Below the pieces are notes generated by a model that was not told the DNA's origin, did not search any database, and worked only from the letters and a program-made list of their open reading frames with translations. This document shows positions 8,670-51,405 of a DNA stretch of 64,000 bases, in pieces (position 1 is the first letter of the stretch; each line of letters begins with the position of its first letter). This DNA is from a bacterium. Lineage in GTDB: Bacteria; Actinomycetota; Coriobacteriia; Coriobacteriales; QAMH01. A program made the translations under genes and the position numbers. The DNA is taken from the NCBI GenBank assembly GCA_963642995.1, contig CAVIIZ010000001.1:72244-136243 (forward strand), in the 5' to 3' direction.

Positions 8670-8684
8670 TGTATCCTGCCTTCC

Positions 8685-8798: not shown

Positions 8799-9002
8799 CT
8801 CACTCAACCTTTCCCAAAGTGTGATGCCACTTCGATCTATGTAAAACGCTGCAGCCGCAAGCGTTGGTTTTCACGCGCTCCACGTCGTGCGCCGTATGCT
8901 GCGCATCGCACGTCGTGCCCCTCTTCGCGGCGAGAGGACGCCGTTTCGCCTTCGTGCGGACGCGCGGTGATGCGCCGCAGGAAGCCGGACGAGAATCTTT
9001 GC

Positions 9003-9221: not shown

Positions 9222-9316
9222 GTGCCGGTTCGCTTTCTACTCGTTTGACCAGACAGACGCAACGGTGAATGTTAGCGTATCTTGCGAGATTTTCATAGAA
9301 ACCACAGAAAGGAGAT

Positions 9317-9730: not shown

Positions 9731-10009
9731 TTATAACCCCGCCTCGCGCAAGCGGACGGCGGCATCTTCGGCGGACACGGAAACCTCGAATCTCTTGTGG
9801 CGGCTCGTCGCGCCCGCCTTCAGCACGACCGCGCTTTTCGGCACATCGAAAAAGGCGGCGAGCACCTTGGCCGCCGCCTTCGTGGCCTTGCCCTTCTCGG
9901 GAGCCGCGCACACGCGCACTTCCAGCTCGCGCGCACCGTCTGCGCCCACGCGCCAGCCGCCCACCGCATCCAGCCCCGCCTTCGGGGTGACGAAGACGGC
10001 CAGCTGCAT
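9731..10009 (-). CDS. DUF167 (YggU-like) protein
   Basis: 92 aa. VFVTPKAGLDAV...LEVRVCAAPEKGKATKAAAKVLAAFFDVPKSAVVLKAGATSRHKRF matches the YggU/DUF167 pattern (APP-x-GKAN ... KS.V.i..G..SR.K). Confidence 0.75.
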   Translation of the reverse strand: MQLAVFVTPKAGLDAVGGWRVGADGARELEVRVCAAPEKGKATKAAAKVLAAFFDVPKSAVVLKAGATSRHKRFEVSVSAEDAAVRLREAGL

Positions 10010-10026
10010 GCGCGGCGCCCTTTTTC

Positions 10027-10926
10027 CTACTCGTCGATCTCGTCGATGAGGGCCGTGTCGTCGAGCAGCTCGGACATGGACGTGGAGATGATCTCGTTGT
10101 CTTGCTTCGGGAAAGGCGCCGCGTCCAGGGGGGCAAACGCCTGCTGCCCTGCGGAAAACCCGCCCGAGTGCGCCCCTGCCGCCGCGCCCGCATACGCAAA
10201 CGCGTCCGCACCGTCTAGCACGGGGACGGGTGCCGAGACATCCGAATCGCCTTTCAGGTCCTCGTATTTCGGCAGCACGTCGTTGACGATGTTGTCGGGA
10301 ATCTGCGGCGGCCGCAGGTTCGCGAAGTCGTTTTCCGCCTCGCCGGCAAAACGCGAGAGCAGCTTCTTGTAGTCCTCGCGAAAACGCGCCGCGGAGTTTT
10401 CCAGCGCGTCTATCTCGTTGAGGATGCGCTGTTTCTCGCTCAAGGCCTCGCGGATGAACTCGCGCGCCTTGCCCTCCGACTCGCGATAGATCCGCTCGCC
10501 TTCCGCGCGGGCGTCCTCCTTCAGCGCGTCGGCGCTGCGCTGCGCGGAGATGAAGGCGTTGGATATGGCCGAGTCCATCTCGTTTTTCTCGTCGAGCTGG
10601 CGCTGCAGGGGGGCGAACTTCTCCTGCAGCTGGGCCAGCTTGGATTCCGCCTGGCGCGAGCGGGCCTCGGCTGCAGCCAGGCGCTGCTCGGCCTCGGTCG
10701 CGCGCCTCGTGGCCGCGTCCAGGGCCGCCGTGTCCACGACGGGCTCGGGCGCCGGAGCCGATGCGGGCGCCTCGGCGAGACGCTGCTGCAGCTGTGCGAT
10801 CTGCGCGTTCATGGCATCGACCTCTTGAGCCACACGCTCCAAAAACTCGTCCACCTGCGTGATGTCGTAGCCGCGCATGGAGTGCTCGAAGCCCTCTTGC
10901 TGGATATCAAGTGCCGTGATGGTCAT
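10027..10926 (-). CDS. divIVA: DivIVA domain cell-division/polar-growth protein
   Basis: MTITALDIQQEGFEHSMRGYDITQVDEFLERVAQEV is the DivIVA N-terminal lipid-binding domain, followed by long coiled-coil sequence. Confidence 0.9.
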   Translation of the reverse strand: MTITALDIQQEGFEHSMRGYDITQVDEFLERVAQEVDAMNAQIAQLQQRLAEAPASAPAPEPVVDTAALDAATRRATEAEQRLAAAEARSRQAESKLAQLQEKFAPLQRQLDEKNEMDSAISNAFISAQRSADALKEDARAEGERIYRESEGKAREFIREALSEKQRILNEIDALENSAARFREDYKKLLSRFAGEAENDFANLRPPQIPDNIVNDVLPKYEDLKGDSDVSAPVPVLDGADAFAYAGAAAGAHSGGFSAGQQAFAPLDAAPFPKQDNEIISTSMSELLDDTALIDEIDE

Positions 10927-10939
10927 GGACTCGTCCTTT

Positions 10940-11200
10940 CTACAAAATCATGGAAACGACCCGCGCGATCACCTGCAACACGACGATGGCGACGATGGGA
11001 CTGAGGTCGATCATGCCTATGGGCGGGATTATACGACGAAACAGGCCGAGGTAGGGCTCGCATATGCGGGCGAGCGCGTTGTAGACGTCGGCGACCCAGC
11101 CCGTGCGGTTGGGGATCCAGCTCATCAAGATGTAGATGATGATGAGGCCGGCGTAGAAATCGACGAGTGTCAAGAGGAGGCGTTGTATGGTGTAGAGCAT
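10940..11200 (-). CDS. yggT: YggT family membrane protein
   Basis: 86 aa, two TM segments, ...YILMSWIPNR...LARICEPYLGLFRRIIPPIGMIDLSPIV. Canonical position between sepF and divIVA. Confidence 0.85.
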   Translation of the reverse strand: MLYTIQRLLLTLVDFYAGLIIIYILMSWIPNRTGWVADVYNALARICEPYLGLFRRIIPPIGMIDLSPIVAIVVLQVIARVVSMIL

Positions 11201-13903: not shown

Positions 13904-15007
13904 CTAGTAGCGGCTGCGCTTGAGGAAATCCGGGATGTCGTCGTCGAAGAGCGCGTTGATGGAGGCGTCGTCTGCGGCGGCCGTGCCGTTCGAGCGCACA
14001 TGCGAGGCGGGCCTGCCCGAACGGACGTCGCGCGGGTCCTCGTCTTGGCGCGGCTCGTTTTTGAAGCCCGTGGCGATGACGGTGATGCGTATCTGGTCGT
14101 CGAGCGAGTCGTCGATGGCCGTGCCGAAGATGATGTCGGCTTCCGGGTCGGCCGCGTCGTTGATGATGCGCGAGGCCTCGTCGACTTCTTCCAGGGGCAG
14201 GTCCGACGGGCCGGTGATGGAGTAGAGGATGCGCGTGGCGCCTTGCACGGAGCTTTCGAGCAGCTTCGAGCTGACGGCCTGCGTGGCCGCCTCGCTGGCC
14301 CGGTTTTCGCCGGAGGCGATGCCGATGCCCATCATGGCAGTGCCCGCGCCCTTCATGATGGTGCGGACGTCGGCGAAGTCGAGGTTGATGAGGCCGGGGA
14401 TGGTGATGAGGTCCGTGATGCCCTGGGTGCCCTGGCGCAAGATGTCGTCGGCGATGCGGAAGGCGTCGAGCATGGAGGTGCGCTTCTCGATGACCTGCAT
14501 GAGGCGGTCGTTGGGGATGACGATGAGGGTGTCGACGTTTTCGGAGAGCACCGCGATGCCCTCCTCGGCGCGCACCATGCGCTTGCGCCCCTCGAAGCCG
14601 AAGGGCTTGGTGACGACGGCCACCGTGAGCGCCCCGATCTCCTCCATGGCGATCTCTGCCACGACGGGAGCCGCGCCCGTGCCCGTGCCGCCGCCCTCGC
14701 CCGCCGTGACGAAGACCATATCGGCGCCGGCGAGCGCGTCGCGGATGTCGTTTCTGGACTCCTCTGCCGCCTGGCAGCCTATCTCGGGGTTCGCGCCCGC
14801 GCCCAGGCCGCGCGTGAGCTCCTCGCCGATGTGGACCGTGCGGTCCGCGTCGCACATGAGCAATGCCTGGCGGTCGGTGTTGATGGCGATGAACTCGACG
14901 CCCTTGACGCCTGCCTCGACCATGCGGTTGACGGCGTTCGTGCCGCCGCCGCCGACGCCGACGACCTTGATGACTGCCAGATGGTCCGCTCCTGCTATAT
15001 CGGGCAT
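13904..15007 (-). CDS. ftsZ: cell division GTPase FtsZ
   Basis: [50 protein letters not shown] (tubulin signature), NLDFADV. The C-terminal peptide is [12 protein letters not shown] 15007 has a GGAGGA SD. Confidence 0.97.
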
Positions 15008-15105
15008 TTCGTATCCTCCAGCTTTTCTTTTCTTCACTACAAGCCCCGAAGCCTTCCCCCGCGCAGGCGCGGCGCAAAGCCCCGGCAAGCATGGAAACCT
15101 TGCAA

Positions 15106-15135
15106 ATTGTACCCCAATGCTGGCATTTTTCATAA
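15106..15135 (-). promoter_or_regulatory. candidate sigma-70-type promoter in the AT-rich ftsQ-ftsZ spacer
   Basis: The minus strand reads TTATGA (15130-15135), 18 nt, then TACAAT (15106-15111), about 100 nt upstream of the ftsZ ATG. This is the only AT-rich patch in the 166-nt spacer. Confidence 0.3.
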
Positions 15136-15173
15136 AAGTATCGAAATAAGCCTCAAATAATCCCGCAAGGGGG

Positions 15174-16304
15174 CTATTCCTGCGCGTTTTGGGCCGACTG
15201 CCCCGTCTGATTGTCGTCTGCCCCCAACGCGCGGTAGGTGGGGCGCGAGGGCACGCGCACATTGATGTAGGAGACCTGACCTGCGAATTTGTCGAGTATG
15301 CCCCATATGGCCGCCTCCTTGGCGGCAACCTCGCTCGCGTCCCCGAAGGCCACGTTCACGCCGTTTTTCAGGTTCAGGGAGGTCTTGGCCGCAGACGGCG
15401 CCGAGATGGTGTCGAGCTCGCCTTTCGTGCGCTCGCCCAGCGCAGAGACCACCTTCAAGGCGTTCATGATGCCCTCGTCGCCGCAGGCCACCCCGGAAAC
15501 GGGCGCGGACATGGAGGCGTCCACGTCGACGATGCGCGGGTTTTTCTCCCAGTCGGCGCCGGTGGCCGCCGAAAGCCAGGCGCCGTCGGCTGCCACCACC
15601 CAGGTGCTCTTCTCGTTCACGCGGACGGCGGCAGCCGGCTCGCGCTCCACGATGGAAAGCTCCACGGTGCCGGGAAAGACGCGCTTCACCTCGACGCTTT
15701 GCACCCAGGCGTTTTGCGCCAGGCGCTGCCTGATGCCGTCTTCGTCGAGGCGCAGCAGCGTGGAATCGGCCGCCACTGCGGCGAGGCGGGTGATCTCGTG
15801 GTCGGTGAGATGCGAGACGCCGGAGACCGTGACGTTTTCCACGTGGAAGGCGTCGGAGCGGTAGAGGAAGATCGCGCCGAATATGACGCCCAGCACGAGC
15901 ATTATGCCGAGGAGTATGCGCAGCACGTATCCCTTGTAGGCGTTTTTCGCACGGCGCTCGCGCTCGGCGGCGCGCAGCTGGGCCTTGGTCTTGGGGCGGC
16001 GCAGAGCCTGCTCGCCGCCAGACGACGCGGCGCGAGGAGAGCCGGATGCGCCGTCGCGGGAAAGCTCGCGCGCACGGCCTCTCCCCTTGCGCGAAGAGGA
16101 ACGGGCCTGCGTGCGCGAGGCGCGCGAAGACGATGGCGCAGAAGACGCGCGCACGCTCTTGCGGACCGCCTTGCCGGCAGAGGCCCCCGCGCGCCTTCCC
16201 TTGGCAGACGCGTTTTCGCGGGCACCCGCACGCGATGCGCGGCCGGCGACGGAAGATGCGCGGGACGCGCCCCTTTTCGGCTTTCGGGATGCCATGTCGA
16301 CCAA
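15174..16304 (-). CDS. ftsQ: cell division protein FtsQ/DivIB (POTRA domain)
   Basis: ~115-aa Arg/Ser/Ala-rich cytoplasmic head and a single TM ([19 protein letters not shown]). POTRA-like [19 protein letters not shown] is followed by the FtsQ beta domain. Start is TTG 16304 or ATG 16295. Confidence 0.85.
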
Positions 16305-37956: not shown

Positions 37957-38289
37957 GTGCGCCGCCTTCCTTTCCCCGCATGGCCCGACGGACCTGCACG
38001 CCGCCCACGGTGTTTCGTTGTCGGGTGAAAATGCAAATGCGCTTCAACTATACATGGAAATCGCCCGCACGCAAGACGCGCGCCGCGACGCCAGGGCATG
38101 TGCGGTGCGCGGCCTTTCGCTATACTTTCGCCTCGTGGAACCGACGCAAACGCACGAAGGCGCGAAACGAACATGTGCCGCCCCCAGACGCGCCGACGGA
38201 AGCGACGCGGAATCCGGAGACGTACGGCCGGGCGTGAAACGGCGGGCGGCCAAGGGCGCGGTGAAGAAGAGGAAGGCGGGGCAAAAGAC

Positions 38290-39339
38290 GTGGATCTGAC
38301 GCTTGCGGCGTTCATAGGGCAGATGGGGGTCTACCCCTCGCTCGGCGTCGTCATCGCCTTGGTCGTGGCCGTCTCGGTCGTCTCCGGCGCCACCGACGCG
38401 CCCAACGCCATCGCGACCGCGGTCTCGACGCGTTGCCTGAAGCCCGGCACGGCGCTGGCCATCGCGGCCGTCTTCAACTTCGTCGGGCTGGTGGCCATGA
38501 CCTACATCTCCACCGCCGTCGCGCACACGATGTTTTCCATGGTGAACTTCGGGGGCGACACGCACATGGCCCTGCTCGCGCTGGTCGCCGCCATGATCGC
38601 CTCGATCGGTTGGGGCGTGTTCTGCTGGTTTTGCGGGATCCCGGCCTCGAAGTCGCACTCGCTGATCGCCGGCATCACCGGGGCGGCCATCGCCTTGAAC
38701 GGCATGGCCGGCGTCGTGCCCGCAGAGTGGGCAAAGGTCATCTACGGCATGGTCTTCTCGCTGGTTGCGGGCTTTGTCATAGGGTGGGTCATGGTGAAGG
38801 CGGTCGAGACGCTGTTCGCCGCGGCGGACAGGCGGCGCGCGAACAGGGCGTGCATGGTCTTCCAAGACATATGCGCCTGCGCCCTGTCGTTTCTGCACGG
38901 CGCGCAAGACGGCCAGAAGTTCATGTCCATCGCGCTTCTGGGCATCGCCTTGAGCTTCGGAGCCGAGTCGCCCGGCGAGGCGGGCTTTCCGTTTTGGCTG
39001 ATGCTCCTGTGCTCGCTGTCCATATCGCTGGGCACGCTCATAGGCGGCAAGCGCATCATCAAGTCCGTGGCCATGGACATGGTGAAGCTCGAGAAATACC
39101 AGGGGGTCGCGGCATCGGCCACGACCGTGGTCACGCTGCTCGTGGCCTCGCTCACCGGCATGCCCGTGTCCACCTCGCATTGCTCGACGGCCGCCATCAT
39201 GGGCGTGGGCGCGAGCAAGAACCCGCGCAAGGTGAAGTGGTCGATCGCGAAGAACATGGTGCTGGCCTGGGTCTTGACCTTCCCCTGCTGCGGGCTGATC
39301 GGCTTTTTGCTCGCGCACCTGTTCATGGCGCTGTTCTAA
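38290..39339 (+). CDS. PiT family inorganic phosphate transporter
   Basis: GATDAPNAIATAVSTR in the N-terminal half and the symmetric HGAQDGQKFM / STSHCSTAAIMG motifs. About 10 TM segments. The start is uncertain: GTG 38290, or ATG 38323 (MGVYPSLGVV...). Confidence 0.88.
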   Translation: MDLTLAAFIGQMGVYPSLGVVIALVVAVSVVSGATDAPNAIATAVSTRCLKPGTALAIAAVFNFVGLVAMTYISTAVAHTMFSMVNFGGDTHMALLALVAAMIASIGWGVFCWFCGIPASKSHSLIAGITGAAIALNGMAGVVPAEWAKVIYGMVFSLVAGFVIGWVMVKAVETLFAAADRRRANRACMVFQDICACALSFLHGAQDGQKFMSIALLGIALSFGAESPGEAGFPFWLMLLCSLSISLGTLIGGKRIIKSVAMDMVKLEKYQGVAASATTVVTLLVASLTGMPVSTSHCSTAAIMGVGASKNPRKVKWSIAKNMVLAWVLTFPCCGLIGFLLAHLFMALF

Positions 39340-39387
39340 ACCCCAGCCCCCGTTGCCCCGGCAAACGTCCATTCCTCAATACGGCGC

Positions 39388-40767: not shown

Positions 40768-40798
40768 AAAAAGGAGGGCTTCCCGAAGGAAGCCCTCC
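40768..40798 (-). terminator. intrinsic terminator of the LRR-CWB2 gene
   Basis: Perfect 11-bp stem GGAGGGCTTCC-cgaa-GGAAGCCCTCC (40773-40798), followed on the minus strand by TTTTTG. It is preceded by a second hairpin, AGATGGCTTTTCC...GGGAAAGCCATCT (40804-40834). Confidence 0.75.
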
Positions 40799-40857: not shown

Positions 40858-43800
40858 CTACTTGCTGGCCACCTTTATCTTGTTCTCGACGTTTGCCGAG
40901 ACCGCCGAGGTGCCACCGAAGATGTAGCAGCTCTTCTCGAGCTTGTTCTTGTACACCTTCACCACGTTGTCGACGTTTTTGTTGTTGCCGTCGTCGGCCA
41001 AGACCAGAACCGAGTTCATCTTGCCGCAAAGGGCCGCGCCCGCGAGCGCGTCGTAGTACGACTTGCCGGTGGCCACGCCCATATGGGCGGCGGTCATGTC
41101 GCCTTCCTTGATGCAGAAGTCGGCGATTTTGCGGCTGGTGCCGTAGGCCGTGTTGCCCCAGAGGCGCTTCCACGATTTCGTCACCTGGCTCTCCACGGAC
41201 TTGGCCACGGCCGCCTCGCCACCCGTGATGATGGTGCGCGTAAAGCCGCCGCTTTTAATGGCCTTGGCGGTGGTATCCGCCAGCGTGCCGGACTTGCCCT
41301 TCGTAAGGAAGATGGGCGCCTTCTTCGCGTAGGCGAAAGGCGCGATGGAAAGCGCGTCTTGGTAGCTAGACGACGTGGCGACGATGGCATCCTTGCCCCA
41401 GCCGCCGTTCACGCGCTTGCCGTACTCGTAAATTTTGTTCGCGGTGCCGATGGCGGTACCACCCGCGACGCGCTCCACAGAGACGCCAAGCTTCTTTATC
41501 TGATTGAACACGTTGTCCGACACCGCCGAGAGGCCGCCTACGACGATAACGTTTTTCACCTTCCTGGACTTGATGAGCGCCGAGGTGGCGTCAGTGAGGC
41601 TCGTCGGCGAGGTCATGAGGATGGGGCAGTCCAGCAGGCCAGCCAGTCCGGACGCAGACAAGGCGTCGTAGTAGCCGTTGGTGGTGGCCACAATGGCCCA
41701 GTCACTGCTGCTCCAGCCTTCGTTCACGATGGCCTTCATCGTGCCGATAGCCGTGCCGCCGGAAAGGCGCTTCCAGATGTCGCTTGAAGACGATCCCTCG
41801 ACGGTGAAGCTCGCGCGCTTGACCGCGTCACCTTCATAGTCGCCGATAGGGGTGATGGTCACCGTGCCCGTGCCGGCCTTGTCGATACCGCTCCAGCTGA
41901 GCGTGTAGTCGACGTCTTTTTCCAGCGTCTTGCCGCCGATCTTCACGACGGGCTCGGGCTTCGCTCCCACCTTCTGCGCCGGAATGTCGCCCACCACAGC
42001 CTCGTCGAAGCCGGGCAGGGTCAGCGTGATGTAGGAATTGGTGCTCCAGTAGCGTATGCCCTTCGCCGTACTAGGATTCGCGTACATATCCTTGCTGATG
42101 CCATAGAGGATGCGCGGCGTGGTATCCGTCGTCGCCATCTGGATGTTATAGGTCTGCGCTTCGAGCGCCGTGCGGTCCCAGCTCGCGTCTACCGTGGGCG
42201 ACGAGTACTCGGTCAAGGTCAGGATGGGCTCGACTTGCATCGCGTTGTCCGGCGCGTCGGAGTTTGCGCCATGCGCAGCGGGGAAGAACAGGTTCTGCTC
42301 GTTGTAGAGCGTATCGTAGCTGACGCTTTGCTGAGGCGCGTCGCCCTTGCTCCCGTAGGTGATGGCCGCGCCGCAGGTCCAGTCGCGTGCCAGCCCTGCG
42401 TCGGCGAAGAGGTTGGTCATGGTCACGTAGTTGTCCGACGAGGCGACGTTCCATACGCCGTTCGGGAAGTACATGCCCGACATGGGCGTACCCTTCGTGG
42501 CCAGCGCCTCTAACTCGCTTTTGGTGAAGGCTTTCACCAGCGTCGGCTCATGAGAGCCGCGCTGCACGTTCAGCTCGAAGATGGTGGGCTCGGGGTAGGC
42601 CAGAGTGATGGTGGCCACATTCGAGACAAGGCGCTTGCCAGGCGCGTTGCCGGCCGCGTACTCCTCGGCGCTCACGCCATAGATCATGCGCGGCGCGTTC
42701 GTGGCAGCTGCCGCCGCTAGGTTGGCCGTCTGGGTCTCGGCGGCCGTGGCGCCATCGGCGATGGCAGAGGAGGCCTCCGTCAAGGCGAGCGCCGCCGGCG
42801 CGTCAACCGGGTTCGTCGTCGTGGTCGTGGAGTCTTTAGTCGTGTCGGGGTAGAATTTGCCCTTTTCAAGGGCGCTGTAGCTGACGCCCTCGCTGCCGAA
42901 ACCATCCGCCGCGGCATAGCTGACCGTCGCATCTTGCGTGTAGTACGCATCGATGTCCGCATCCCCGAACAAGGTGGAGAGCGTGACATAGTTTTGCGAG
43001 GAGTCGACGCTCCACGAGCCGCCCGTCCGCGCATAGAGGGCAGACACCGCCTGCGCGTTCGGGTCGACGAGCTTTTGCAGGTCGGCGATGGTGTATTCGG
43101 CCACCTTCTCGACCGCGCGGTCGCCTTCTTTCTTGTTCACAGTCAAGGCGATGGCCGCGTAGAGAGCCGTCACGCGGTAGCCGCTGTCGAAGATGGCCTG
43201 CTTCCAATCCTCGATGCTCCAGCCCACGAATTTCTTGCCCTCGGCGTCGTATTCGGGGGCCGCGGGCTCGGTGGCCGTCTGGCCTGCCGAAAGCACCTGC
43301 GCGTCGATGCTGGTGCCGTCGGGGTTCAAGAAGTTGACATAGAAATAGGAGTTGGCGTCCGTGATCTCGTCGGGCAGAGTCGCGGGGCGCACGCCGGCGA
43401 AGATGTACTTCTCAATGCCGCTGTTGGTGAAGGCCGCAGCATCGATGCTCTCGACCGTCGAGGGGATGATCAGCTCCTTGAGCGCCGTGGTGCCCATGAA
43501 TGCCTTCGCCGGAATCGACTTAGGCCCTTCCGCCAGGGTGACCGAGCTCAAGTTTTCCGAGCCGTTGAAGAGCTGCTGGGGCAGCTCGGCAGAGGTCTTG
43601 ATGATGGCCGTGGTCAGGTTGTGGCAATTCGCGAACAGGCGCGAGGGTAGGCTCTCAACCGTCGAGGGGACGGTCACGGACTCGACCGAGAGAGCCGCAT
43701 GCGAGGACAAATAGGTAACCCCCTCGGGATAGTCGAGCGTCTTCAGGCTCGTGCAACCAGTGAACGGAGATCCGCTCGAGCTGCCCACCGTCTTCAGGGT

Positions 43801-45423
43801 AGAGGGCATGTTCACCGTGTCGAGCGCGGTACAGCCGTTGAACATGTTGTAGGGAATCTGCGTGCACCCCTCGACGAAAGTAGCCGTCTTCAGGGACGTG
43901 CAATCCTGGAAGACGCCGTTTTTTGCATCTGTCTTGTTGAAATTCGTCACACTGGCAGGAACGGTGACCTCCGTCAGGCCGATCCCCTTGAAGCAGCCGG
44001 AATCGAGGCTCGTACAGGTCTCGGGGATGATGAAGCTCGTGATGGCCGCACAGCCCTGGAAGGCACACTTGCCGATGCTTGTGATCTGGTCGCTGATGTC
44101 GAGGGTGGCCAACGCGGTGCAGCCGTCGAAGGTGCTGGCGGGGATGTCGGTCAGGGCCGCGGGCAGCTTCGCGCTTTGCAACTGGGCACACTTCTGGAAC
44201 ACAGAAGTGCCCATGGTCGTGACCGCATCGGAGACGGTGGCCGAAGTGATGACCGTGTTGTAGAAAGCACTATTGCCGATTTCAATCACAGCAGCGGGCA
44301 GCTTCAAGGCACCTGTCAGGGCGGAACCGGAAAATGCGAAGGCGCCTATCTTGGTGACGGTAGCGGGCATGGCCGCCAGCGAGGTGATGGCCGTGCAGTT
44401 CTGGAAGCAGCTCGTGGGCAAATAGGTAATACCGTCAGGGAAAGTCACGCTGGAAAGCTTCGTGCATCCGGAAAAGCCCGTGCCCAAATCGGCAGTCGCC
44501 GTGTCGGTCTGGTACTGCGCCTTCACGCTCTCGTTGTCCGGCAGCTTCACCGAGACGAGCGAGGCGCAGTTGTCGAAGAGGTTCGTGCCAATCTTCGTGA
44601 TGGAATCGGACAAGTTCACGTTCGTCAGACCCGTGGCCTCAAACGCGTTGCGCCCGATCTGCGTGATGGTGGAGGGCATGAAGGACAGGTCGGCGATCTT
44701 CGAACAGCCGCTGAACATATAGTCGGGTATGGAGGTCATGCCGGCGGGAAGCGTCACCTTCGCGGAGTCAAGCCCCGTGCAGTTCTGGAAGACGTGCGCG
44801 CCCAAAGTCGTCGCCTGCGAGGACACCGTCAACTCTGAAATAGCGGAACAGCCCTTGAAGGCCGAATCCCCGACACTTGCCACGGTGGCGGGGATATTCA
44901 GAGTGGTGAACGCGGCTGCGCAACCCGAGAAGGCAGACTTGCCGATCGAGGTCACCTGCGCGGGGATGGTGAAGTTCTTGAGTGCCTTACAGTTGTTGAA
45001 GCAGCTGTCGGGGATGGCCGTTACGCCATCGGGGATGTTCACCTGGGCAAGCTGCGTGCAGCCGGAAAAGGCGCTCGTCCCAAATGTCGTCACCGTCGAG
45101 GGCAGCGATATGGAGGTGACGTTCGTCGCGCCGTAAAACGCCTTGTTGTCAAGGCCGGTGACCGTGTAAGTCGTGCCATCGTCCGAGACGACGGTTTGCG
45201 GGATGACCTTGCTTCCCGAGAGCTTGCTGGTCGTCGCCTTCACATAGGCGACCGACGCCGTTCCATCAGCGTTCAGCGTGTACGGGATACCGTCGATGGT
45301 CGTGGCGGCTTGCGCGCCGGCCGCGAGCACGGCGGCCAGCCCCAGCGCGCATGCGGCCGCAAAGGCCGCGCACGCGACGCGCATGCGGCGTGGCAGCGCG
45401 TGAATGGTCGTGCCTGTCTTCAT
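40858..45423 (-). CDS. giant surface protein: signal peptide + BspA-type leucine-rich repeats + Listeria/Bacteroides B-repeat + duplicated unknown module + 3x cell-wall-binding repeat 2 (CWB2)
   Basis: Signal peptide MKTGTTIHALPRRMRVACAAFAAACALGLAAVLAAGAQA. Dozens of ~23-aa units follow, of the form L.sv.iP..Vt.IG..AF.gC..L. One B-repeat (YFYVNFLNPDGT...FVGWS). The C-terminal 307 aa (40861-41781) are three CWB2-like units (GGTAIGT...YYDALSASGLAG...PILMT; YQDALSIAPFAYAKKAPIFLT; YYDALAGAALCGKMNSVLVL). ATG 45423 has a GGAGAAAGGAA SD. Confidence 0.85.
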   Translation of the reverse strand: MKTGTTIHALPRRMRVACAAFAAACALGLAAVLAAGAQAATTIDGIPYTLNADGTASVAYVKATTSKLSGSKVIPQTVVSDDGTTYTVTGLDNKAFYGATNVTSISLPSTVTTFGTSAFSGCTQLAQVNIPDGVTAIPDSCFNNCKALKNFTIPAQVTSIGKSAFSGCAAAFTTLNIPATVASVGDSAFKGCSAISELTVSSQATTLGAHVFQNCTGLDSAKVTLPAGMTSIPDYMFSGCSKIADLSFMPSTITQIGRNAFEATGLTNVNLSDSITKIGTNLFDNCASLVSVKLPDNESVKAQYQTDTATADLGTGFSGCTKLSSVTFPDGITYLPTSCFQNCTAITSLAAMPATVTKIGAFAFSGSALTGALKLPAAVIEIGNSAFYNTVITSATVSDAVTTMGTSVFQKCAQLQSAKLPAALTDIPASTFDGCTALATLDISDQITSIGKCAFQGCAAITSFIIPETCTSLDSGCFKGIGLTEVTVPASVTNFNKTDAKNGVFQDCTSLKTATFVEGCTQIPYNMFNGCTALDTVNMPSTLKTVGSSSGSPFTGCTSLKTLDYPEGVTYLSSHAALSVESVTVPSTVESLPSRLFANCHNLTTAIIKTSAELPQQLFNGSENLSSVTLAEGPKSIPAKAFMGTTALKELIIPSTVESIDAAAFTNSGIEKYIFAGVRPATLPDEITDANSYFYVNFLNPDGTSIDAQVLSAGQTATEPAAPEYDAEGKKFVGWSIEDWKQAIFDSGYRVTALYAAIALTVNKKEGDRAVEKVAEYTIADLQKLVDPNAQAVSALYARTGGSWSVDSSQNYVTLSTLFGDADIDAYYTQDATVSYAAADGFGSEGVSYSALEKGKFYPDTTKDSTTTTTNPVDAPAALALTEASSAIADGATAAETQTANLAAAAATNAPRMIYGVSAEEYAAGNAPGKRLVSNVATITLAYPEPTIFELNVQRGSHEPTLVKAFTKSELEALATKGTPMSGMYFPNGVWNVASSDNYVTMTNLFADAGLARDWTCGAAITYGSKGDAPQQSVSYDTLYNEQNLFFPAAHGANSDAPDNAMQVEPILTLTEYSSPTVDASWDRTALEAQTYNIQMATTDTTPRILYGISKDMYANPSTAKGIRYWSTNSYITLTLPGFDEAVVGDIPAQKVGAKPEPVVKIGGKTLEKDVDYTLSWSGIDKAGTGTVTITPIGDYEGDAVKRASFTVEGSSSSDIWKRLSGGTAIGTMKAIVNEGWSSSDWAIVATTNGYYDALSASGLAGLLDCPILMTSPTSLTDATSALIKSRKVKNVIVVGGLSAVSDNVFNQIKKLGVSVERVAGGTAIGTANKIYEYGKRVNGGWGKDAIVATSSSYQDALSIAPFAYAKKAPIFLTKGKSGTLADTTAKAIKSGGFTRTIITGGEAAVAKSVESQVTKSWKRLWGNTAYGTSRKIADFCIKEGDMTAAHMGVATGKSYYDALAGAALCGKMNSVLVLADDGNNKNVDNVVKVYKNKLEKSCYIFGGTSAVSANVENKIKVASK

Positions 45424-45588
45424 AGCTGCGGTTCCTTTCTCCATGCCGCTTCGGGTGCACGCGCCTCGACGCATGCCCCCCTGCGGCTTTCCATATATGC
45501 AAACTCGCCGCCCACGAGCGCAGGGCAGCGAGGTTGTTCTATCCGGCGCCACGACACGCGGGCGCGAAAAGGGGCGTCTTCCCCCGTC

Positions 45589-45918
45589 TCACGACCCGCC
45601 CTCGTCGCCGGCCGTCTCCAGCACGTACATCTTTCCCGTGGCGGGGTCCTCGAAGGCCTCGCCGCGGCGTATGTAGAGCCCCTTGCCGTCTTCGGTCGAG
45701 GAGAGCAGCTTGTCCATGTCCACGGCGTCGGAGAGCCGGTCTTGCTCCACGACCTCGGTCTGCGCCGAGTTCACCGAGACGTTCCAGTAGACGGCCAAGG
45801 CCACCATCAAGCCGCAGGAGAAGACCAGCATGACGTCGGCCAGATTGGAAAGGCCTGCCATGGGGTCTTCCTCTCCTGCGTCGAAGCGGCCGGCCCCGCG
45901 TGTCGGGCGCTTAACCAT
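45589..45918 (-). CDS. ExbD/TolR-like or DUF2149-like single-pass membrane partner of the MotA/ExbB channel
   Basis: 109 aa. The charged N-terminus (MVKRPTRGAGRFDAGEEDP) is followed by one TM, LSNLADVMLVFSCGLMVALAVYW, with an Asp at its cytoplasmic edge, and then a ~60-aa extracytoplasmic domain. ATG 45918 overlaps the upstream gene's stop by 8 nt (ATGGTTAA). The alternative start is ATG 45861. Confidence 0.65.
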   Translation of the reverse strand: MVKRPTRGAGRFDAGEEDPMAGLSNLADVMLVFSCGLMVALAVYWNVSVNSAQTEVVEQDRLSDAVDMDKLLSSTEDGKGLYIRRGEAFEDPATGKMYVLETAGDEGGS

Positions 45919-46567
45919 TGGCCGCCCCCGTATCCGCGGGCGCAAGCGAGGCCGCCTTGTCCAAGACGATGTTCATCGTGGCCTCCAGCGCGCTCATGTA
46001 GTCCTCGTACCAGTGGCGGCGCAGCTTGGATATGCCGAAGGCCACGGCCGAGACGATGAGACCCGCCACCGTCGTGTCGAAGGCGACGGCAAGCGAGTTC
46101 GACAAGGTGGCCATGTCGCCGCCCGACAGCGCCATGACGCCCGGCCCCAGCGGGATCAGGGTGCCCATCAACCCGAACATGGGCGCGATGCGCGTCGCGA
46201 AATCGCTGCGCATGAGGGTGCGGCGGTAGCGCAGCTCCTCTTCGGCAAGCAGGCGCGCGGCCAGCGCCTCGCGCACGTCGGGGCGTGCATCGCGCATGGA
46301 GAAGACCTCGGCGAGCGCGCTGCGTTGCCGGCGCAGAAGCCCGCTGTCCTCGATGACGGCCTCGACCTGTGCGGGCGCGGCATCGGAGACGGCGCGGGTG
46401 AAGCGCGAGACCACCGCCTTGAAGCGCCGTCGCTCGGACAGCCCCTCGACCACGAGCGAGCCCAGCTCGACGACCGCGTAGGCCGCGAGCAGCAGCAGCA
46501 CGACCATCACGGGCACGAGCAAGACCTGGGACAAGGCGTGTATGGTGCTCTGGATGCCGCTCGTCAT
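45911..46567 (-). CDS. MotA/TolQ/ExbB family proton-channel protein
   Basis: 218 aa with three TM segments. The family signature is in TM2-TM3: RIAPMFGLMGTLIPLGPGVMAL....LSNSLAVAFDTTVAGLIVSAVAFGISKL. ATG 46567 overlaps the TGA of the upstream LRR gene (ATGA). Confidence 0.8.
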   Translation of the reverse strand: MTSGIQSTIHALSQVLLVPVMVVLLLLAAYAVVELGSLVVEGLSERRRFKAVVSRFTRAVSDAAPAQVEAVIEDSGLLRRQRSALAEVFSMRDARPDVREALAARLLAEEELRYRRTLMRSDFATRIAPMFGLMGTLIPLGPGVMALSGGDMATLSNSLAVAFDTTVAGLIVSAVAFGISKLRRHWYEDYMSALEATMNIVLDKAASLAPADTGAANG

Positions 46568-49500
46568 CGGCGGCCACCTCCTTTGCTCGGAGCTGTCTGC
46601 TCGTGAAAGGACCTCATGCGCAAGGCGGCGCCCACGGCAAACCCGACGAGAAGCGCCAGCCCCAAGGCGATGGCGACGCCCGTCTGCAACGGCGCCTCGG
46701 AAAACGCCTTCTTCAGCACCTCGACCACCTTGTAGGCAGGCGACGCGTCCGCGGACTGCTCCGGCGCCGCGTCCTCGCTTGTCGTCTCCTCCCGCGTTTG
46801 CGCCTGGTCGCTGTCCCGCCGCGCTTGCACGCTCTCGCTCGCCGCGGCGCTGTCCGCAACCTGCTGCATCCTCGCAGGCTCCTGCGCCTGCGCCGAGACG
46901 GTGCCTGCCGCAGACGGCAGTTGCGCGCCGAAGGCGCCTGCCGCGACGGTTGCCGCTCCCGGAAAACCCGACGCGAGGCCGCCTCCCGTGCCGCCGCCCC
47001 CGTTGCCGTCCGTGCCGCCTGTACCGCCTGTGCCGCCGCCGCCGGGCACGAGGCCGCCGGGTTCGCCCCCGCCTCCTCCGCCCTTCTCCCCACCGCCGCC
47101 CGGGTTCAGCTTCTCCAGCCACTGCGCCCAGGTCATCACGCCGGAAAGCTGCGCTGCGGAAAGCGATTTGTCGCGCAGGAGCACGTCGGCCCTCCACGCG
47201 TCGATGTCGTCGCCCATGTAGACGAAGTTCACCACCCCGCTGCCCGCGAAGGCGTCGCGGCCTATCTCGACGACGGAGCCCGGGATGAAGACGGTCTTCA
47301 AGTTCACGCATCCCTCGAACAACCCCGCCCCGATGACGGTCGCTCCCGCGGGCAAGACGATCTGCTCGAGGGCGGTCATGTCCTTGAACACCGAGGCGTT
47401 CCAGGGGCGCCCGCTGTTGCCAAACGACGAGCCGATGGTCTTCACCGTATCGGGAATGACGAGCTTTTTTATGGAAGAGCAGCCCTTGAAGACCGAATCG
47501 CCTATCTCGACGATGTTGGAGGGGATGTCGAGGCCTTCCAGGCTCGTGCAGCCCTGGAACAGGCCGCCCGCGAGTTTCGCCATGCCCTTCGAGAGGGTGA
47601 CCTTCTTCAGAGCCGTGCAGTCGAGAAACGCGTTCGCGCCGATCTCTTTCAGCGAGTCGGGCAGCACGGCCTGCACGAGGCTCGCGCAGCGCCGAAACAC
47701 CCCCTGCCCCATGGTCTCGACGCCGCAGGACAGGTCGAGCGCAGACAGCGCGCCGCAATCGGAAAACGCCCAATCCCCCACCGTGCGCAACGACGTCGGG
47801 GCGGTAAAGGACCTCATCTTCGCGCAGCCGTCGAAGGCCGAATACCCTATAGAGGCGACCTTCGTCTTGGAGAGGTCCGCGGCGGGCAGCGAGGTGCAGC
47901 CGGCGAAGGCGCGGTTGCCCACTTCCGCAAGCGCCGTCGGCCAATTGAGCGACTTCAAGGCCGTGCAGCCGGCAAAGCAGCCGGCGCCTATGGAGGCGGT
48001 CTGCGCGCCCAGTTTCACCGTGGAAAGCGAGCTGCACTTGTAGAAGGTGCAGCTGTCCAGCTTCGTCACCGCGGCCGGCACCGAGATGGATTTCAGCGCC
48101 GTGCAGCCCTGGAAGGCGTAGGCGCCGAGGACGCTCAACGCGGCAGGCAGCGCGATCGAGGAAAGCGCCGTGCATCCGTCGAAGGCCGACATCTCGATTT
48201 TCGCCAGGCTCGCGGGCAGGGTCAGGGCGGCAAGCGCCGTGCATCCGGCAAACGCCGAGTTGCCCAAAGCGGAAAGACCCGCCGGCAGTTTCACGTCCCT
48301 CAGCGCCGTGCAGCCCGAAAACGTGCCCGTGGGCAAGGTGCCGAGGGGCGCGCTGACCTCGGCCGAGACCAGCGCCGTGCAGCCCTTGAAGACGCCCGAG
48401 CCCATGGACTGCACCGTCTGCGGCACGACAACCGACTTCAAGGACGTGCAGGCGGCAAACGCGCTCATCCCGATGGAGGCGACCGTATCGGGAATGGAGA
48501 CGCCCTCCACCTTCGCCAGGCCCTTGAAGGCGTTCTTGCCGATTGAGGCCACCGTGTACTCGCGCCCGCCTGCCTCGACCGTCGCGGGGATGGAGACGGC
48601 TCCCTCCAGGTCGGGGTTGGCCTCGACGAGGGTGGCCGTGCCGGACGCGTCGTCGTAGCTCCAGTGGAACTCGCCTACGAAGGGCTCGACGGGATCTTCG
48701 CTGTAGACGGCCTGCACCTCCAAGCTGTCGCGCACATCGGTAAAAGGCACGCTCCACCCCGAAAACGTCCAGCCGGTGCGCGACGGCGGCGTGGGCGCGA
48801 CAGCCGAGCCGCCCTCGCGCACCTCCTGCGCCGAGCCTATCTTGCCGCCCGTCCAGCTGAGAAACTGCACGGTGAACCACAAAACCGCCCCGTCGGGCAG
48901 GGCGCCTTCGGCCAAGGCGGGCCTCTTGCCCTTGAAGACGACCTTCAGCGGGTCGCGGGCAGGCGCACTCGCGTCGTCGCCCGTGTCGGGCACGAGGGCG
49001 CCGGCGGCGATGGAGGCGACGTTTGCCGAGACGACCACCTGCGTGTAGTCCAACCCGAAGCTCGCGCCCGCATCGAGCGCGACCACCTTGTAGGCCTCGC
49101 CCGCAAGCGTCGGGCGCACGACGTCGGGCACGGTCAGCACGCCGCCTTTCAGGTCGTCTTTGGTCAGGTGGTGCACGACGGCCGTCTTGGTGGCCGCGTC
49201 GAAGGTGGCGTTGGCCTCGAAGACGGGGGCGACGTCCATGGACGTGCGCACCTCCTCGACGTCGTCCGACCAGCCCACGGAGGTCTGCCCGTAGGGGGCG
49301 GCCACGTTGGGGGCAGCCGCCTCGGCGCCCTCCTTCACGTACCTGGTGGACAGCAGCGCTCCAGCCGCGTCGAAAAAGCGCACGGTGTAGCGCCACTCGA
49401 CATAGCGCGAGAACGCGTCCGCCGAGCAGGAGGGCTTGGCGCCGGCGCAGGTGACCTGCTCGAGCTTCTTGCATTTCGCGAAGGCCTTCGAGCCGATGCT

Positions 49501-51240
49501 CTCGACCGAAGCCGGCAAGGACAACGAGACGAGCTGCGTCTGGTTGTCGAAGGCGCAGTCCCCTATGCCGACCACCATGTAGGCGATGCCGCCTTTTTTC
49601 GTGGTGGCGGGCACGGACAGAGAAGTGGCGGTGATGCCTCTGGGCGTGCCCGTGAGCACGGCCGTCTTGGAAGACGCGTCGTAGCTCCACGTGAAATCGG
49701 GGGCGACGATCGGATGGCAGTCCGCGCCGCGCTCGACCGCCTCGTAGACGCCGTCCCATCCGAGGAAGACCTGGTTTGCCGGCACGCCCACGCGCGAGGC
49801 ATCCGGCGCGGTCGCGCTGGTGCCAGGGTCGAGAACCTGCGCGTCGCCGATCTGCTCGCCGTCTGTGTCGAAGAAGCGCACGCGGTAGGAGATCTTCACC
49901 CTGTCGGGCACGCCGTCGTCTCCCAGCCATTTGGTGGACAGGTCGGGCAAAGTGCCGCCCAAGACGAGGCTCGTCAGGCGGTCGGCCGCGTAGAAGGCGT
50001 GGTACTTCACCGTCGTGCAACTGCCGGGGATGGTCACCTGCACGAGGCGGTTGCAGTTGTAGAAGGCCTCGATGCCGATGCTTTGCAAGGAGTCGGGCAG
50101 CGTGAGAGACGAAAGCGAGGTGCAGTTCATGAAGGCGCTGTCGGGGATGGCCGAGACCTTGTCGGGCACGGTCACGTCGTCAAGCGCGCTGCAGCCGGCA
50201 AACGCGGCCTGCCCCAGCGTCTTCAGGTTGTAGGGCAGGCTCACGTGCGAAAGCGCGGTGCAACTCTCGAAGGCGTTCGCGCCGACGGTCGAGACGATGG
50301 GCGGCAAGGTGAGGTCGGAAAGCGAGCTGCACAGGTAGAAGGCCCTGCTGCCCACCGAGGTCAGGGCCTGGGGCAGCGTGGCGTCCGCGAGCTTCGCGCA
50401 GCGCATGAAGGCCTCCGAGGGCAGCTTGCGCAACGAGGTCGCGGACAGGTCGACGCTGCGAAGCGCGGCGCAGTTGGAGAAGGCCGCGTCGCCTATGGCG
50501 GCAAGGGCTTTGGGCGCGGTGAAGGAGGAAAGGCCGGTGGCGTGGAAGGCCTCCTTGCCGATGGAGGTCAAGGTGTCGGGAAGGGAAAGCGAGGACAGGG
50601 CGGCGTCTTCGTAGAAGCACTGCGCGCCGATGCTGCGCACACCGGCCAGGTCCACGGACACGAGCGCCGGGCACTGGTAGAAGAGCATATCGTTGAAGTA
50701 GGAGACCTTGCCGTTGCCCGTGTAGGAGGCAAGGGATGCGCAGTTGTAGAAGGCGGTCTGCCCCAGCGAGGACAGGGCGGCCGGCGCGGTGAAGGACGAA
50801 AGGCCGCTCGAGGCGAAGGCGCCCTCGCCGATGGAGGCCACGGTGTCGGGCAAGACGATGGTCTCGAGCGCGCTGCGGCGCGCGAAGGCGCTGTCGCCGA
50901 TGGCGGTGACGGCAAGCTCTGCGCCGTCTACGGCGACGGTGGCGGGCACCTCGAGCTCTGCGGGCACGTCCACGCCGTCTGCCAGACCCGTGATGGCGGC
51001 GGTGCCGTCGGCGTTTGCCTTCACGGTGAAAACCGACGCCGGCGCATCAGCGGGAAAAGCGCCGAGGGCAGAAGAAGCGCCGGAGGCGCTCCCGGCGACG
51101 TTTTCAGCAAAAGAAGAAGAAGCATCGGCGGCAGCGGCAAGCGCGGGGCTGCACGAGGACGCGACGAGGCAGGCCGCCATCAGCAGCGACACCCCGCAGG
51201 CGCGGGGGGAAACGAGACGACGGGGACTCCGTCTGCTCAT
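46564..51240 (-). CDS. giant surface protein: signal peptide + two BspA-type LRR arrays + 3 Listeria/Bacteroides B-repeats + Gly-rich linker + C-terminal TM anchor
   Basis: Signal peptide MSRRSPRRLVSPRACGVSLLMAACLVASSCSPALAAAADA. LRR units have the form LP.tV.sIG..AF.gCtaL. B-repeats are YRVRFFDTDGE...FLGW, YTVRFFDAAGA...SVGW and FTVQFLSWTGG...FSGW. The Gly-rich tract is at 46975-47100. PLQTG (46678-46692) precedes the hydrophobic VAIALGLALLVGFAVGAAL and the RMRSFHEQTAPSKGGGRR tail. Start is ATG 51240 or GTG 51258. Confidence 0.85.
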   Translation of the reverse strand: MSRRSPRRLVSPRACGVSLLMAACLVASSCSPALAAAADASSSFAENVAGSASGASSALGAFPADAPASVFTVKANADGTAAITGLADGVDVPAELEVPATVAVDGAELAVTAIGDSAFARRSALETIVLPDTVASIGEGAFASSGLSSFTAPAALSSLGQTAFYNCASLASYTGNGKVSYFNDMLFYQCPALVSVDLAGVRSIGAQCFYEDAALSSLSLPDTLTSIGKEAFHATGLSSFTAPKALAAIGDAAFSNCAALRSVDLSATSLRKLPSEAFMRCAKLADATLPQALTSVGSRAFYLCSSLSDLTLPPIVSTVGANAFESCTALSHVSLPYNLKTLGQAAFAGCSALDDVTVPDKVSAIPDSAFMNCTSLSSLTLPDSLQSIGIEAFYNCNRLVQVTIPGSCTTVKYHAFYAADRLTSLVLGGTLPDLSTKWLGDDGVPDRVKISYRVRFFDTDGEQIGDAQVLDPGTSATAPDASRVGVPANQVFLGWDGVYEAVERGADCHPIVAPDFTWSYDASSKTAVLTGTPRGITATSLSVPATTKKGGIAYMVVGIGDCAFDNQTQLVSLSLPASVESIGSKAFAKCKKLEQVTCAGAKPSCSADAFSRYVEWRYTVRFFDAAGALLSTRYVKEGAEAAAPNVAAPYGQTSVGWSDDVEEVRTSMDVAPVFEANATFDAATKTAVVHHLTKDDLKGGVLTVPDVVRPTLAGEAYKVVALDAGASFGLDYTQVVVSANVASIAAGALVPDTGDDASAPARDPLKVVFKGKRPALAEGALPDGAVLWFTVQFLSWTGGKIGSAQEVREGGSAVAPTPPSRTGWTFSGWSVPFTDVRDSLEVQAVYSEDPVEPFVGEFHWSYDDASGTATLVEANPDLEGAVSIPATVEAGGREYTVASIGKNAFKGLAKVEGVSIPDTVASIGMSAFAACTSLKSVVVPQTVQSMGSGVFKGCTALVSAEVSAPLGTLPTGTFSGCTALRDVKLPAGLSALGNSAFAGCTALAALTLPASLAKIEMSAFDGCTALSSIALPAALSVLGAYAFQGCTALKSISVPAAVTKLDSCTFYKCSSLSTVKLGAQTASIGAGCFAGCTALKSLNWPTALAEVGNRAFAGCTSLPAADLSKTKVASIGYSAFDGCAKMRSFTAPTSLRTVGDWAFSDCGALSALDLSCGVETMGQGVFRRCASLVQAVLPDSLKEIGANAFLDCTALKKVTLSKGMAKLAGGLFQGCTSLEGLDIPSNIVEIGDSVFKGCSSIKKLVIPDTVKTIGSSFGNSGRPWNASVFKDMTALEQIVLPAGATVIGAGLFEGCVNLKTVFIPGSVVEIGRDAFAGSGVVNFVYMGDDIDAWRADVLLRDKSLSAAQLSGVMTWAQWLEKLNPGGGGEKGGGGGGEPGGLVPGGGGTGGTGGTDGNGGGGTGGGLASGFPGAATVAAGAFGAQLPSAAGTVSAQAQEPARMQQVADSAAASESVQARRDSDQAQTREETTSEDAAPEQSADASPAYKVVEVLKKAFSEAPLQTGVAIALGLALLVGFAVGAALRMRSFHEQTAPSKGGGRR

Positions 51241-51317
51241 CTGCCCGGACACATGCACCTTCCACGACGCACGCGCGCCCCCCTCGAGGGGAGAGGGCGC
51301 GCATCATTTTTTCAACC

Positions 51318-51340
51318 GTCGAATCTTCGACAAAATTATA
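51318..51340 (-). promoter_or_regulatory. candidate -10 element plus adjacent palindromic operator upstream of the LRR/ExbB operon
   Basis: TATAAT on the minus strand (51335-51340) is immediately followed by the inverted repeat GTCGAA-ga-TTCGAC (51318-51331). This is the only AT-rich patch between ppdK and the LRR gene. No convincing -35 was found. Confidence 0.3.
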
Positions 51341-51365
51341 TCCTAACGTGATATAACGCATCGCG

Positions 51366-51405
51366 AAAAAGGGGCGCGCAGCCGGCGTTTCCGACCACGC
51401 GCCCC
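51366..51405 (-). terminator. candidate intrinsic terminator of ppdK
   Basis: The minus strand reads GGGGCGCG (51398-51405), a 19-nt loop, CGCGCCCC (51371-51378), then TTTTTC. Confidence 0.5.

Follow-up and report, generated by a model that had tools for sequence, protein, structure and literature searches.

Four adjacent minus-strand genes in a 64 000-nucleotide stretch of genomic DNA from a bacterium of the order Coriobacteriales (assembly GCA_963642995.1, contig CAVIIZ010000001.1, positions 72 244 to 136 243; hereafter, the window) encode two giant leucine-rich repeat (LRR) surface proteins and, between them, an ExbB-like protein and a small DUF2149 protein. On balance, we favour the view that this cluster is a lineage-specific, LRR-decorated form of a widespread module of monoderm bacteria, composed of a protein with the ExbB/TolQ fold, a DUF2149 protein and a secreted protein anchored in the membrane by its C-terminus. 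The sequences further suggest, tentatively, that this core is accompanied by wall-bound proteins, lipoproteins or giant proteins having in common a domain related to Oxidored_molyb. A preliminary description of the same DNA had seen in this cluster an energised adhesin or a device for passage through the wall. The linkage of the ExbB-like/DUF2149 pair to surface proteins is borne out by the present analysis, and the adhesin label is not (see later in the text).

The stator-type pair and its cluster

The 218-aa product of the second gene of the cluster (45911..46567, minus strand) is a true member of the family of stator A subunits (MotA/TolQ/ExbB). It matches PF01618 (MotA_ExbB) over residues 94-194 with 38 bits, for a cut-off of 22.9, and its AlphaFold2 (AF2) model, built with 28 homologues and having a predicted local distance difference test (pLDDT) score of 89.5, comprises three transmembrane (TM) helices and a long helical cytoplasmic domain. 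Foldseek aligned this model over ~205-216 columns, corresponding to its full length, with ExbB (TM-score 0.64-0.74) and TolQ (0.6-0.69), while MotA, PomA and ZorA fitted less well. By sequence profile, the protein is a distant member of the family, with E-values of 9e-4 for MotA, 0.018 for ExbB and 0.2 for TolQ. T136 (in GLMGT) as well as D164 and T166 (in AFDTT) are invariant in 28 sequences, and they may be the counterparts of ExbB T148, E176 and T181. The subfamily is characterized by two motifs, APM(F/L)GLMGTLIPLGPG and AFDTT, both carried by the window protein.

The 109-aa single-pass product of the third gene (45589..45918, minus strand) matches PF09919 (DUF2149) with 34.1 bits for a cut-off of 27.1. 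DUF2149 was the only Pfam match, no match was obtained in NCBIfam, and by sequence the protein belongs to neither the ExbD/TolR nor the MotB family. An aspartate, Asp28 (codon 45835-45837), is invariant inside the TM helix (N-L-x-D-x-M-L-V) in 32 DUF2149 sequences, and a C-terminal motif, G-x-V-Y-x-D-P-x-T-G-K-x-Y, is also conserved. With hhalign, the DUF2149 TM helix was placed on that of Escherichia coli ExbD, Asp on Asp, in a weak alignment (P 0.004, probability 9%). Judged from these sequences, DUF2149 is a separate family whose common ground with ExbD/TolR/MotB is limited to the Asp-bearing helix; by analogy, Asp28 is likely to be the proton-coupling site. The ExbB-like fold together with an Asp-bearing single-pass partner suggests that the pair works like a stator A/B pair. 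The initial identification of a MotA/TolQ/ExbB-family protein with an Asp-bearing partner is therefore upheld by Pfam, by AF2 and Foldseek and by the invariant Asp28. Regarding the label 'ExbD/DUF2149-like' then given to the partner, its DUF2149 half is retained, and ExbD is not detectable beyond the TM segment. The C-terminal motif of DUF2149, at residues 86-98 in its short extracytoplasmic end, is nearly invariant and hairpin-like; it could be the site at which DUF2149 contacts the anchored protein or the wall.

The first gene (46564..51258, minus strand; a 1564-aa open reading frame (ORF) from a GTG, with a likely start at ATG 51240 giving ~1558 aa) encodes the secreted, anchored giant, in which Pfam recognizes LRR_5 in nine stretches (E 3e-189) and the Flg_new repeat. 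According to the translation, its last LRR block is followed by a low-complexity linker of ~135 aa, rich in Gly, Ala, Ser and Glu (46699..47106), by a single hydrophobic helix, LQTGVAIALGLALLVGFAVGAAL (46621..46689), and by a basic cytoplasmic tail, RMRSFHEQTAPSKGGGRR, so that the protein end reads ...GAALRMRSFHEQ.... We propose that the linker is a wall-spanning spacer, and the anchored giant may be the client of the pair or the transducer of its force. The window tail is RMRSFHEQ, and close relatives have RSRSYRRQ or RGRSY(R/K)RQ, which are nearer to the family motif; tails of the partners found in Clostridia resemble [RK]xx[YF][RK][RK].

The fourth gene (40858..45423, minus strand) encodes a secreted wall-bound giant of 1521 aa. 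Pfam recognizes LRR_5 in it (E 3e-120), as well as CW_binding_2 in three stretches (40885..41685; E 9e-41); the latter constitute a non-covalent wall anchor and also gave a SlpA-like stretch in the NCBIfam search. Thus, MotA_ExbB, DUF2149, LRR_5, Flg_new and CW_binding_2 were all matched when profiles were run on the four proteins, as the preliminary description had anticipated.

The genes are tightly packed. The TGA of the anchored giant overlaps the ATG of the ExbB-like gene (ATGA), with a GGAGG located 8 nt before that ATG, and the stop codon of the ExbB-like gene overlaps the DUF2149 ATG by 8 nt (ATGGTTAA). A gap of 165 nt separates DUF2149 from the wall-bound giant and contains no hairpin comparable to the two strong terminator-like hairpins that bound the cluster. 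The first of these, at 51371..51405 on the minus strand (15-bp stem and T-run), closes the upstream PPDK gene and marks the 5' boundary; the second, at 40773..40798 on the same strand (11-bp stem and T-run), lies 60 nt past the last stop codon and marks the 3' boundary. Coordinates, overlaps, gene order and terminator are all present as originally reported. Because the G+C content of the window is 60-71%, many long spurious ORFs are found in it. Those that compete with the pair (45807..46577 on the minus strand, 45830..46606 on the plus strand and a 1369-aa extension of the ExbB frame) are artefacts, since Pfam support and 2154 homologues exist for the 218-aa frame only.

The same arrangement is found in four independent assemblies, which we refer to as the window clade (L087, L007, L088 and L092, the numbers designating individual loci). 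Their ExbB-like proteins, taken from the nearest to the most distant, are ~100, 83, 75 and 70% identical to that of the window, and all keep the order of anchored LRR giant, pair and LRR-CWB2 giant, with orthologues of the anchored giant in the same position; of the downstream gene, the short L087 contig includes no more than the part encoding residues 1-122. Conservation of the four-gene order over these distances indicates that the arrangement is beyond chance. In the meantime, the giants have diverged to 58-69% and 50% identity, the latter value corresponding to the L088 orthologue of the CWB2 giant, at the same position. The wall-bound giant, as a paralogue of the anchored one, has LRR blocks ~28-31% identical to it, a level that our comparison gave only between the giants of the window and the other loci of the clade.

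Distribution of the module and the hallmark domain

A pattern scan with the subfamily motifs, performed on one genome per GTDB species, showed that at least 582 species representatives carry the ExbB-like subfamily. The best 80 loci of these at least 582 are labelled almost entirely as Coriobacteriia or Clostridia; five have other taxon labels, and at least three of the five are probably mis-binned. Loci labelled Bacteroidaceae (L007), Bacteroidales (L041) and Akkermansia muciniphila (L045) carry a monoderm-type locus, probably through binning contamination, and the ExbB-like protein of L007 is 75% identical to that of the window.

DUF2149 comes directly after the ExbB-like gene in all of the 86 fetched loci, and the stop and start codons of the two genes overlap in 57 of 83. 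In ~40 of 77 usable loci, the product of the gene immediately upstream has a TM helix at its C-terminus, followed by a basic tail. In others (for example L012, L019, L027, L039, L052, L055, L057 and L085), an anchored protein is encoded directly 3' of DUF2149, and in Ellagibacter (L010) it is found one gene further upstream. When the 39 loci with at least 8 kb of both flanks are considered, 37 contain at least one C-terminally anchored protein by a crude hydropathy criterion. All the anchored partners have ordinary Sec-type signal peptides, and many are just 350-500 aa long. Among 43 upstream partners submitted to Pfam, Big_2 was present in 25 and LRR_5 with Flg_new in 4. In the reverse direction, a search starting from the N-domain of the partners retrieved five loci in metagenomes. 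Two of them are cut off within the partner gene, and in each of the remaining three, which continue beyond it, the next genes are those of the pair. A single-protein metagenome scan returned no relatives. The proposal that the pair is coupled to the surface proteins encoded beside it, and not to clients of the Ton, Tol or flagellar kind, gains from these data, with an anchored protein adjoining the pair in most of the ~77 usable loci; what the neighbourhood census did not extend to the family is the LRR type of surface protein, which characterizes a small minority of the upstream partners.

The wall-bound giant is tied to the system by a domain that we call the hallmark domain. Two tandem copies, detected with Jackhmmer and hhalign, occupy residues ~746-1190 (41854..43188, minus strand) and contain the motifs YT..L, DG, (F/Y)YP, VPAxLAL and R..G; within the window, no protein other than the wall-bound giant was matched. 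Starting from either copy, Jackhmmer reaches proteins in 61-67 loci, including the gene right after DUF2149 in Ellagibacter and the N-domain of Clostridial TM-anchored partners. A direct hhalign comparison of the window-clade repeats with these N-domains gave a probability of 97.5% (E 8e-12, 152 columns). Because the hallmark domain matches the partner N-domains of related loci, we conclude that the wall-bound giant belongs to the system, and its initial designation as a linked partner thus receives independent support from a locus-specific domain in common with the anchored partners. In the canonical form of the module, the hallmark domain, Big_2 and the anchor are part of one protein; in the window form, the LRR/Flg_new protein has the anchor and the stalk, whereas its wall-bound paralogue has the hallmark domain.

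In turn, hhalign related the partner N-domains to a lipoprotein of 160 aa (88%, E 3e-6), whose gene directly follows DUF2149 in many Clostridia. This lipoprotein is matched by the Pfam family Oxidored_molyb (43 bits), and its domain is present 5-8 times in adjacent surface proteins of 1800-2000 aa. An exhaustive search with a profile made of the two window rows found 143 clusters among 1.84 billion representatives, mostly secreted, 14 of them with CWB2 and 4 with LRR. AF2 modelling of the hallmark domain from the two window repeats only gave a pLDDT of 47, which is unusable.

Finally, we noted additional features in single loci. An Eggerthellaceae metagenome-assembled genome (MAG; L032) contains two ExbB-like/DUF2149 pairs 4.4 kb apart (9980-11141 and 14424-15513), each after its own anchored protein. 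In L001 (8930-9940), L020 (8909-9907) and L022 (11570-12496), the pair adjoins the gene of a 308-336-aa protein that has a weak TiaS_TCKD match and a C-terminus rich in Cys (SCKNCL.RRW..GGF.C); Pyr_redox_2/DUF1667 oxidoreductases are encoded nearby. Surface proteins of L023 (2-5722), L033 (12801-18794), L027 (3-5000) and others often end in (K)xYYYKV(R/K)AY...K; as far as tested, this motif has no Pfam match, and it may be a wall-association or sorting signal.

Uptake genes and riboswitches in related loci

Among the 39 loci with full flanks, FecCD was found in 24, Peripla_BP_2 in 24 and the hallmark domain in 29, while 35 encode, within 10 kb, a protein that is 1000 aa or longer. Relatives that combine the pair with a FecCD importer include Gordonibacter and Denitrobacterium detoxificans. 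Moreover, an Rfam scan of 40 loci revealed that molybdenum or tungsten cofactor (Moco/Tuco) riboswitches head the gene strings containing the pair in L033, L062, L004 and L035, extra copies being located before giant surface proteins (L033 894-1006, 4815-4930 and 12586-12700; L062 3583-3698; L004 4147-4274 and 12515-12635; L035 282-418). Such operons encode the pair, FecCD importers, Sec-exported Oxidored_molyb lipoproteins and giants with 5-8 Oxidored_molyb-like domains. Molybdate transporters, proteins that use the cofactor and the synthesis of the cofactor itself are known targets of Moco riboswitches. The gene content of the Moco-riboswitch loci suggests that they specify a surface system for the scavenging of molybdenum/tungsten (Mo/W) or of the cofactor. 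In L033 and L062, nearby genes were read as aldehyde:ferredoxin oxidoreductase from their N-terminal sequence alone.

Cobalamin riboswitches precede the ExbB-like gene directly in Emergencia timonensis (L027) and in a Peptococcaceae MAG (L068); the features of these loci lie at 5237-5431, 9418-9609, 7954-9300 and 10981-16077 in L027 and at 9441-9682 in L068. In L027, the neighbours include DUF4430 proteins, whose domain occurs in vertebrate B12 binders, and, 3' of DUF2149, a Flg_new giant of 1699 aa that is anchored by a TM helix at its C-terminus. The substrate-binding proteins of L023 and L002 were also compared with the PDB. After three generically named entries (iron-complex or periplasmic binding protein, taken for structural-genomics deposits), HI_1472 is their next relative (E 1e-17 and 8e-15); siderophore and B12 binders come lower in the ranking, and no recognised haem binder stands above HI_1472. 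We take HI_1472 to be MolA, a binder of molybdate and tungstate.

Two more specific roles were considered for the family and rejected. A cobalamin-only role does not fit, as no B12 riboswitch was present in the first 11 loci and a mix of Moco (4) and cobalamin (2) riboswitches appeared later. A role in haem uptake, deduced from homology to Hmu proteins (see below), does not fit either: Shr-like_HID occurs in one locus only, and the binding proteins are nearer to HI_1472 than to haem binders. With Moco, cobalamin and varied surface proteins around it, the pair looks like a generic energiser reused with different cargo binders in demand-regulated uptake.

In the window, the cluster is flanked upstream by PPDK and downstream by AAA_14/DUF4143 and then PHO4. 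A minus-strand ORF at 38044-39372 (442 aa, no Pfam match) is probably a spurious antisense ORF of high G+C; in the near-identical Logan contig L092, the opposite strand (38098-39339, plus) is annotated as a PHO4 phosphate transporter. A full-length bacterial RNase P RNA of class A (269 bits) is located at 9320-9712 on the minus strand.

Proposed force transduction and alternative explanations

By analogy with ion-driven stators, the ExbB-like and DUF2149 proteins very probably form a proton-conducting complex, which would be assembled in a 5:2 ratio and driven by protonation of Asp28. To the next step, the transfer of stator movement to the anchored protein through its C-terminal TM helix, in the manner of the TonB and TolA helices riding on ExbB and TolQ, we give an even chance; it would imply physical contact between complex and anchored protein. 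More speculatively, the flexible linker would carry the work through the thick wall to the distal LRR/Flg_new domains and then to the wall-bound LRR/CWB2 paralogue, which would change its ligand binding or release. In relatives, the cargo would pass to a MolA-like binding protein and a FecCD-type importer, and the ligand may be a scarce cofactor or metal, Mo/W-related or cobalamin. FecCD importers and Moco or cobalamin riboswitches in relatives argue for a TonB-like energiser of cofactor capture through the wall rather than for an adhesin. We thus put forward, tentatively, a Gram-positive-type version of TonB-like force transduction, in which the motor would pull C-terminally anchored, wall-spanning proteins and power cofactor capture or release ahead of ABC import. 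For the window's own version, the reading as nutrient release is more doubtful.

The resemblance of the module to the Ton and Tol systems concerns the full-length ExbB/TolQ fold, with the PF01618 match; the small single-pass partner with its invariant Asp in the membrane; a third protein, in which a single TM helix is combined with a long, flexible spacer directed outward; and, in relatives, the association with uptake of scarce nutrients under cofactor riboswitches. However, the host is of monoderm type, as judged from CWB2 and from its relatives in Coriobacteriia and Clostridia, and has no outer membrane. In the third protein, the anchor is C-terminal (N-out), whereas it is N-terminal in TonB and TolA, and this third protein has LRR, Big_2 or Oxidored_molyb-like domains instead of the TonB C-terminal domain; DUF2149, for its part, has no ExbD profile match. 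TonB (N-terminal TM, Pro-rich spacer, TonB_C), TolA and TonB-dependent transporters are absent from the cluster proteins and their immediate neighbours. The earlier statement that TonB, TonB-dependent receptors, Tol-Pal and flagellar genes are missing from the window holds for these genes, which are the ones checked.

A MotA_ExbB protein followed by DUF2149 corresponds to HmuU/HmuV of the Bacteroidota haem operon hmuYRSTUV, where the role of the pair is still called unclear. The two genes are adjacent and in the same order there, in a nutrient-acquisition operon. However, the Hmu system is that of a diderm, with the HmuY haemophore, the TonB-dependent receptor HmuR, the CobN-like dechelatase HmuS and HmuT. 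None of the HmuY, HmuR, HmuS and HmuT families was found among the annotated neighbours in the window or in the partial Pfam annotation of the related loci; what the monoderm loci contain in their place are surface proteins anchored at the C-terminus and importers of the FecCD type. The FecCD permeases, HI_1472-like binders and some Moco-riboswitch-led operons of the relatives recall the MolBC-A type II importer (HI_1470-1472), a likeness seen by sequence in the relatives' loci, such an importer not being present in the window.

Several observations weigh against the uptake model or against the place of the window in it. The ORFs of the related loci were called by a crude heuristic and their TM segments and signal peptides by hydropathy, with some false positives, and many loci come from MAGs. 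DUF2149 lacks the periplasmic domain of ExbD/TolR: beyond the TM helix it has ~60 residues, made of an acidic variable linker and the conserved motif, where B subunits have a folded periplasmic domain of ~90 aa or an OmpA-like peptidoglycan-binding domain, and a PDB profile search with DUF2149 gave no ExbD, TolR or MotB at E-values up to 10. A hidden Markov model (HMM) of the Clostridial C-terminal tails misses the window tail, so what we claim for the anchor is a shared architecture and not homology of the tails. The window repeats showed no significant similarity to the Oxidored_molyb lipoproteins in a direct hhalign comparison (P 0.16), and Pfam at E-values up to 10 placed Oxidored_molyb neither on these repeats nor on the partner N-domains; the tie of the window repeats to Oxidored_molyb is therefore transitive and tentative. 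Riboswitches were detected in just 6 of the 40 scanned loci. Finally, the window contains no ABC importer, binding protein or riboswitch, and no ABC ATPase was found in its 64 kb by phmmer with two ATPases from related loci. The uptake role of the window's cluster is for this reason extrapolated from relatives whose ExbB-like proteins are ~45-55% identical.

That the window clade has neither importer nor riboswitch nearby speaks for an adhesin. In this alternative, which we hold to be improbable, the proton-motive force (PMF) would set the retention, extension or tension of LRR attachment proteins, as an energised adhesin or a control of adhesin display. LRR_5 of BspA type together with Flg_new is typical of adhesins and internalins, and the NCBIfam search brought up the HupY/LrrG adhesin and Gli349, but far below cut-off and through the LRR repeats only. 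A precedent exists in SiiA/SiiB of Salmonella pathogenicity island 4, a MotAB/ExbBD-like proton-channel pair encoded with, and acting on, the giant adhesin SiiE. The likeness lies in a proton-channel-type pair encoded with a giant repetitive surface protein; however, SiiAB act as accessory proteins of type I secretion, their host being a diderm, and SiiE is a secreted BIg-repeat adhesin devoid of a TM anchor. Genes for such a system (ABC exporter, membrane fusion protein, outer membrane protein) were not found among those examined around the cluster. The adhesin label was derived from LRR_5 only, and this type of partner is a minority in a family dominated by Big_2 and set among uptake operons and cofactor riboswitches; moreover, the wall-bound giant has the same domain as the partners in uptake loci. 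For the LRR clade, the family context does not favour such a role.

GldLM/PorLM, the PMF-driven 5:2-type motor of Bacteroidota gliding and type IX secretion, moves the giant surface adhesin SprB. The comparison with this motor made in the preliminary description is an analogy only, as GldLM belongs to other protein families, to a diderm envelope and to type IX secretion, and neither window protein had a GldL/GldM-type match; SiiAB/SiiE is the closer precedent for a stator acting on a giant adhesin.

Next comes the possibility, also improbable, that the pair exports the giants, threads them through the peptidoglycan or positions them. Such a device would account for the tight coupling to the anchored giant and for the frequency of proteins of at least 1000 aa close to the pair in the complete loci. 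However, the many partners of 350-500 aa fit it poorly, all partners have signal peptides of the ordinary Sec type, no dedicated secretion genes were found among the window genes examined around the cluster, and riboswitch control is better suited to demand-regulated uptake.

It is likewise unlikely, and we rank it after the two preceding explanations, that the pair serves a membrane transport step only, as an HmuUV-like component for metal, haem or cofactor, with the LRR giants as unrelated neighbours. The occurrence of HmuU/HmuV homologues in haem or iron uptake operons and the frequent FecCD importers nearby are in agreement with this. What speaks against it is the stop/start overlap with the LRR gene, the four-gene order kept while the giants diverge, the recurrence of the C-terminal anchor and the domain common to the wall-bound giant and to partners elsewhere, as well as a window with no transporter for the pair to serve.

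Lastly, a 2025 survey considered Ton components in monoderms probably non-functional and dismissed the ExbB-like genes there as vestigial, but for this module a non-functional Ton remnant is hardly credible, given functional residues invariant across Coriobacteriia and Clostridia, an obligate pairing, translational coupling, riboswitch control and a presence in so many species.

In the literature outside subscription, we found no description of such a monoderm module, and none of the DUF2149 papers listed deals with monoderms. The preliminary description, which did not recognise the system as a described one, is accordingly right for the module as a whole, and its pair has named relatives in HmuU/HmuV. 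What is new here is the class of client and the type of envelope for ion-driven 5:2-type stators, which are a known kind of machine. Work done at the cell surface by the PMF is textbook knowledge for diderms (Ton, Tol, gliding, flagella) and is generally thought to be unnecessary or absent in monoderms. If the proposed force transduction is true, the PMF would also operate the Gram-positive envelope and the DUF2149/HmuV family would gain a function. It would also make the role of HmuU/HmuV testable in simpler, single-membrane hosts and provide a handle on cofactor scavenging by the Mo/W-hungry and B12-hungry Coriobacteriia and Clostridia of the gut.

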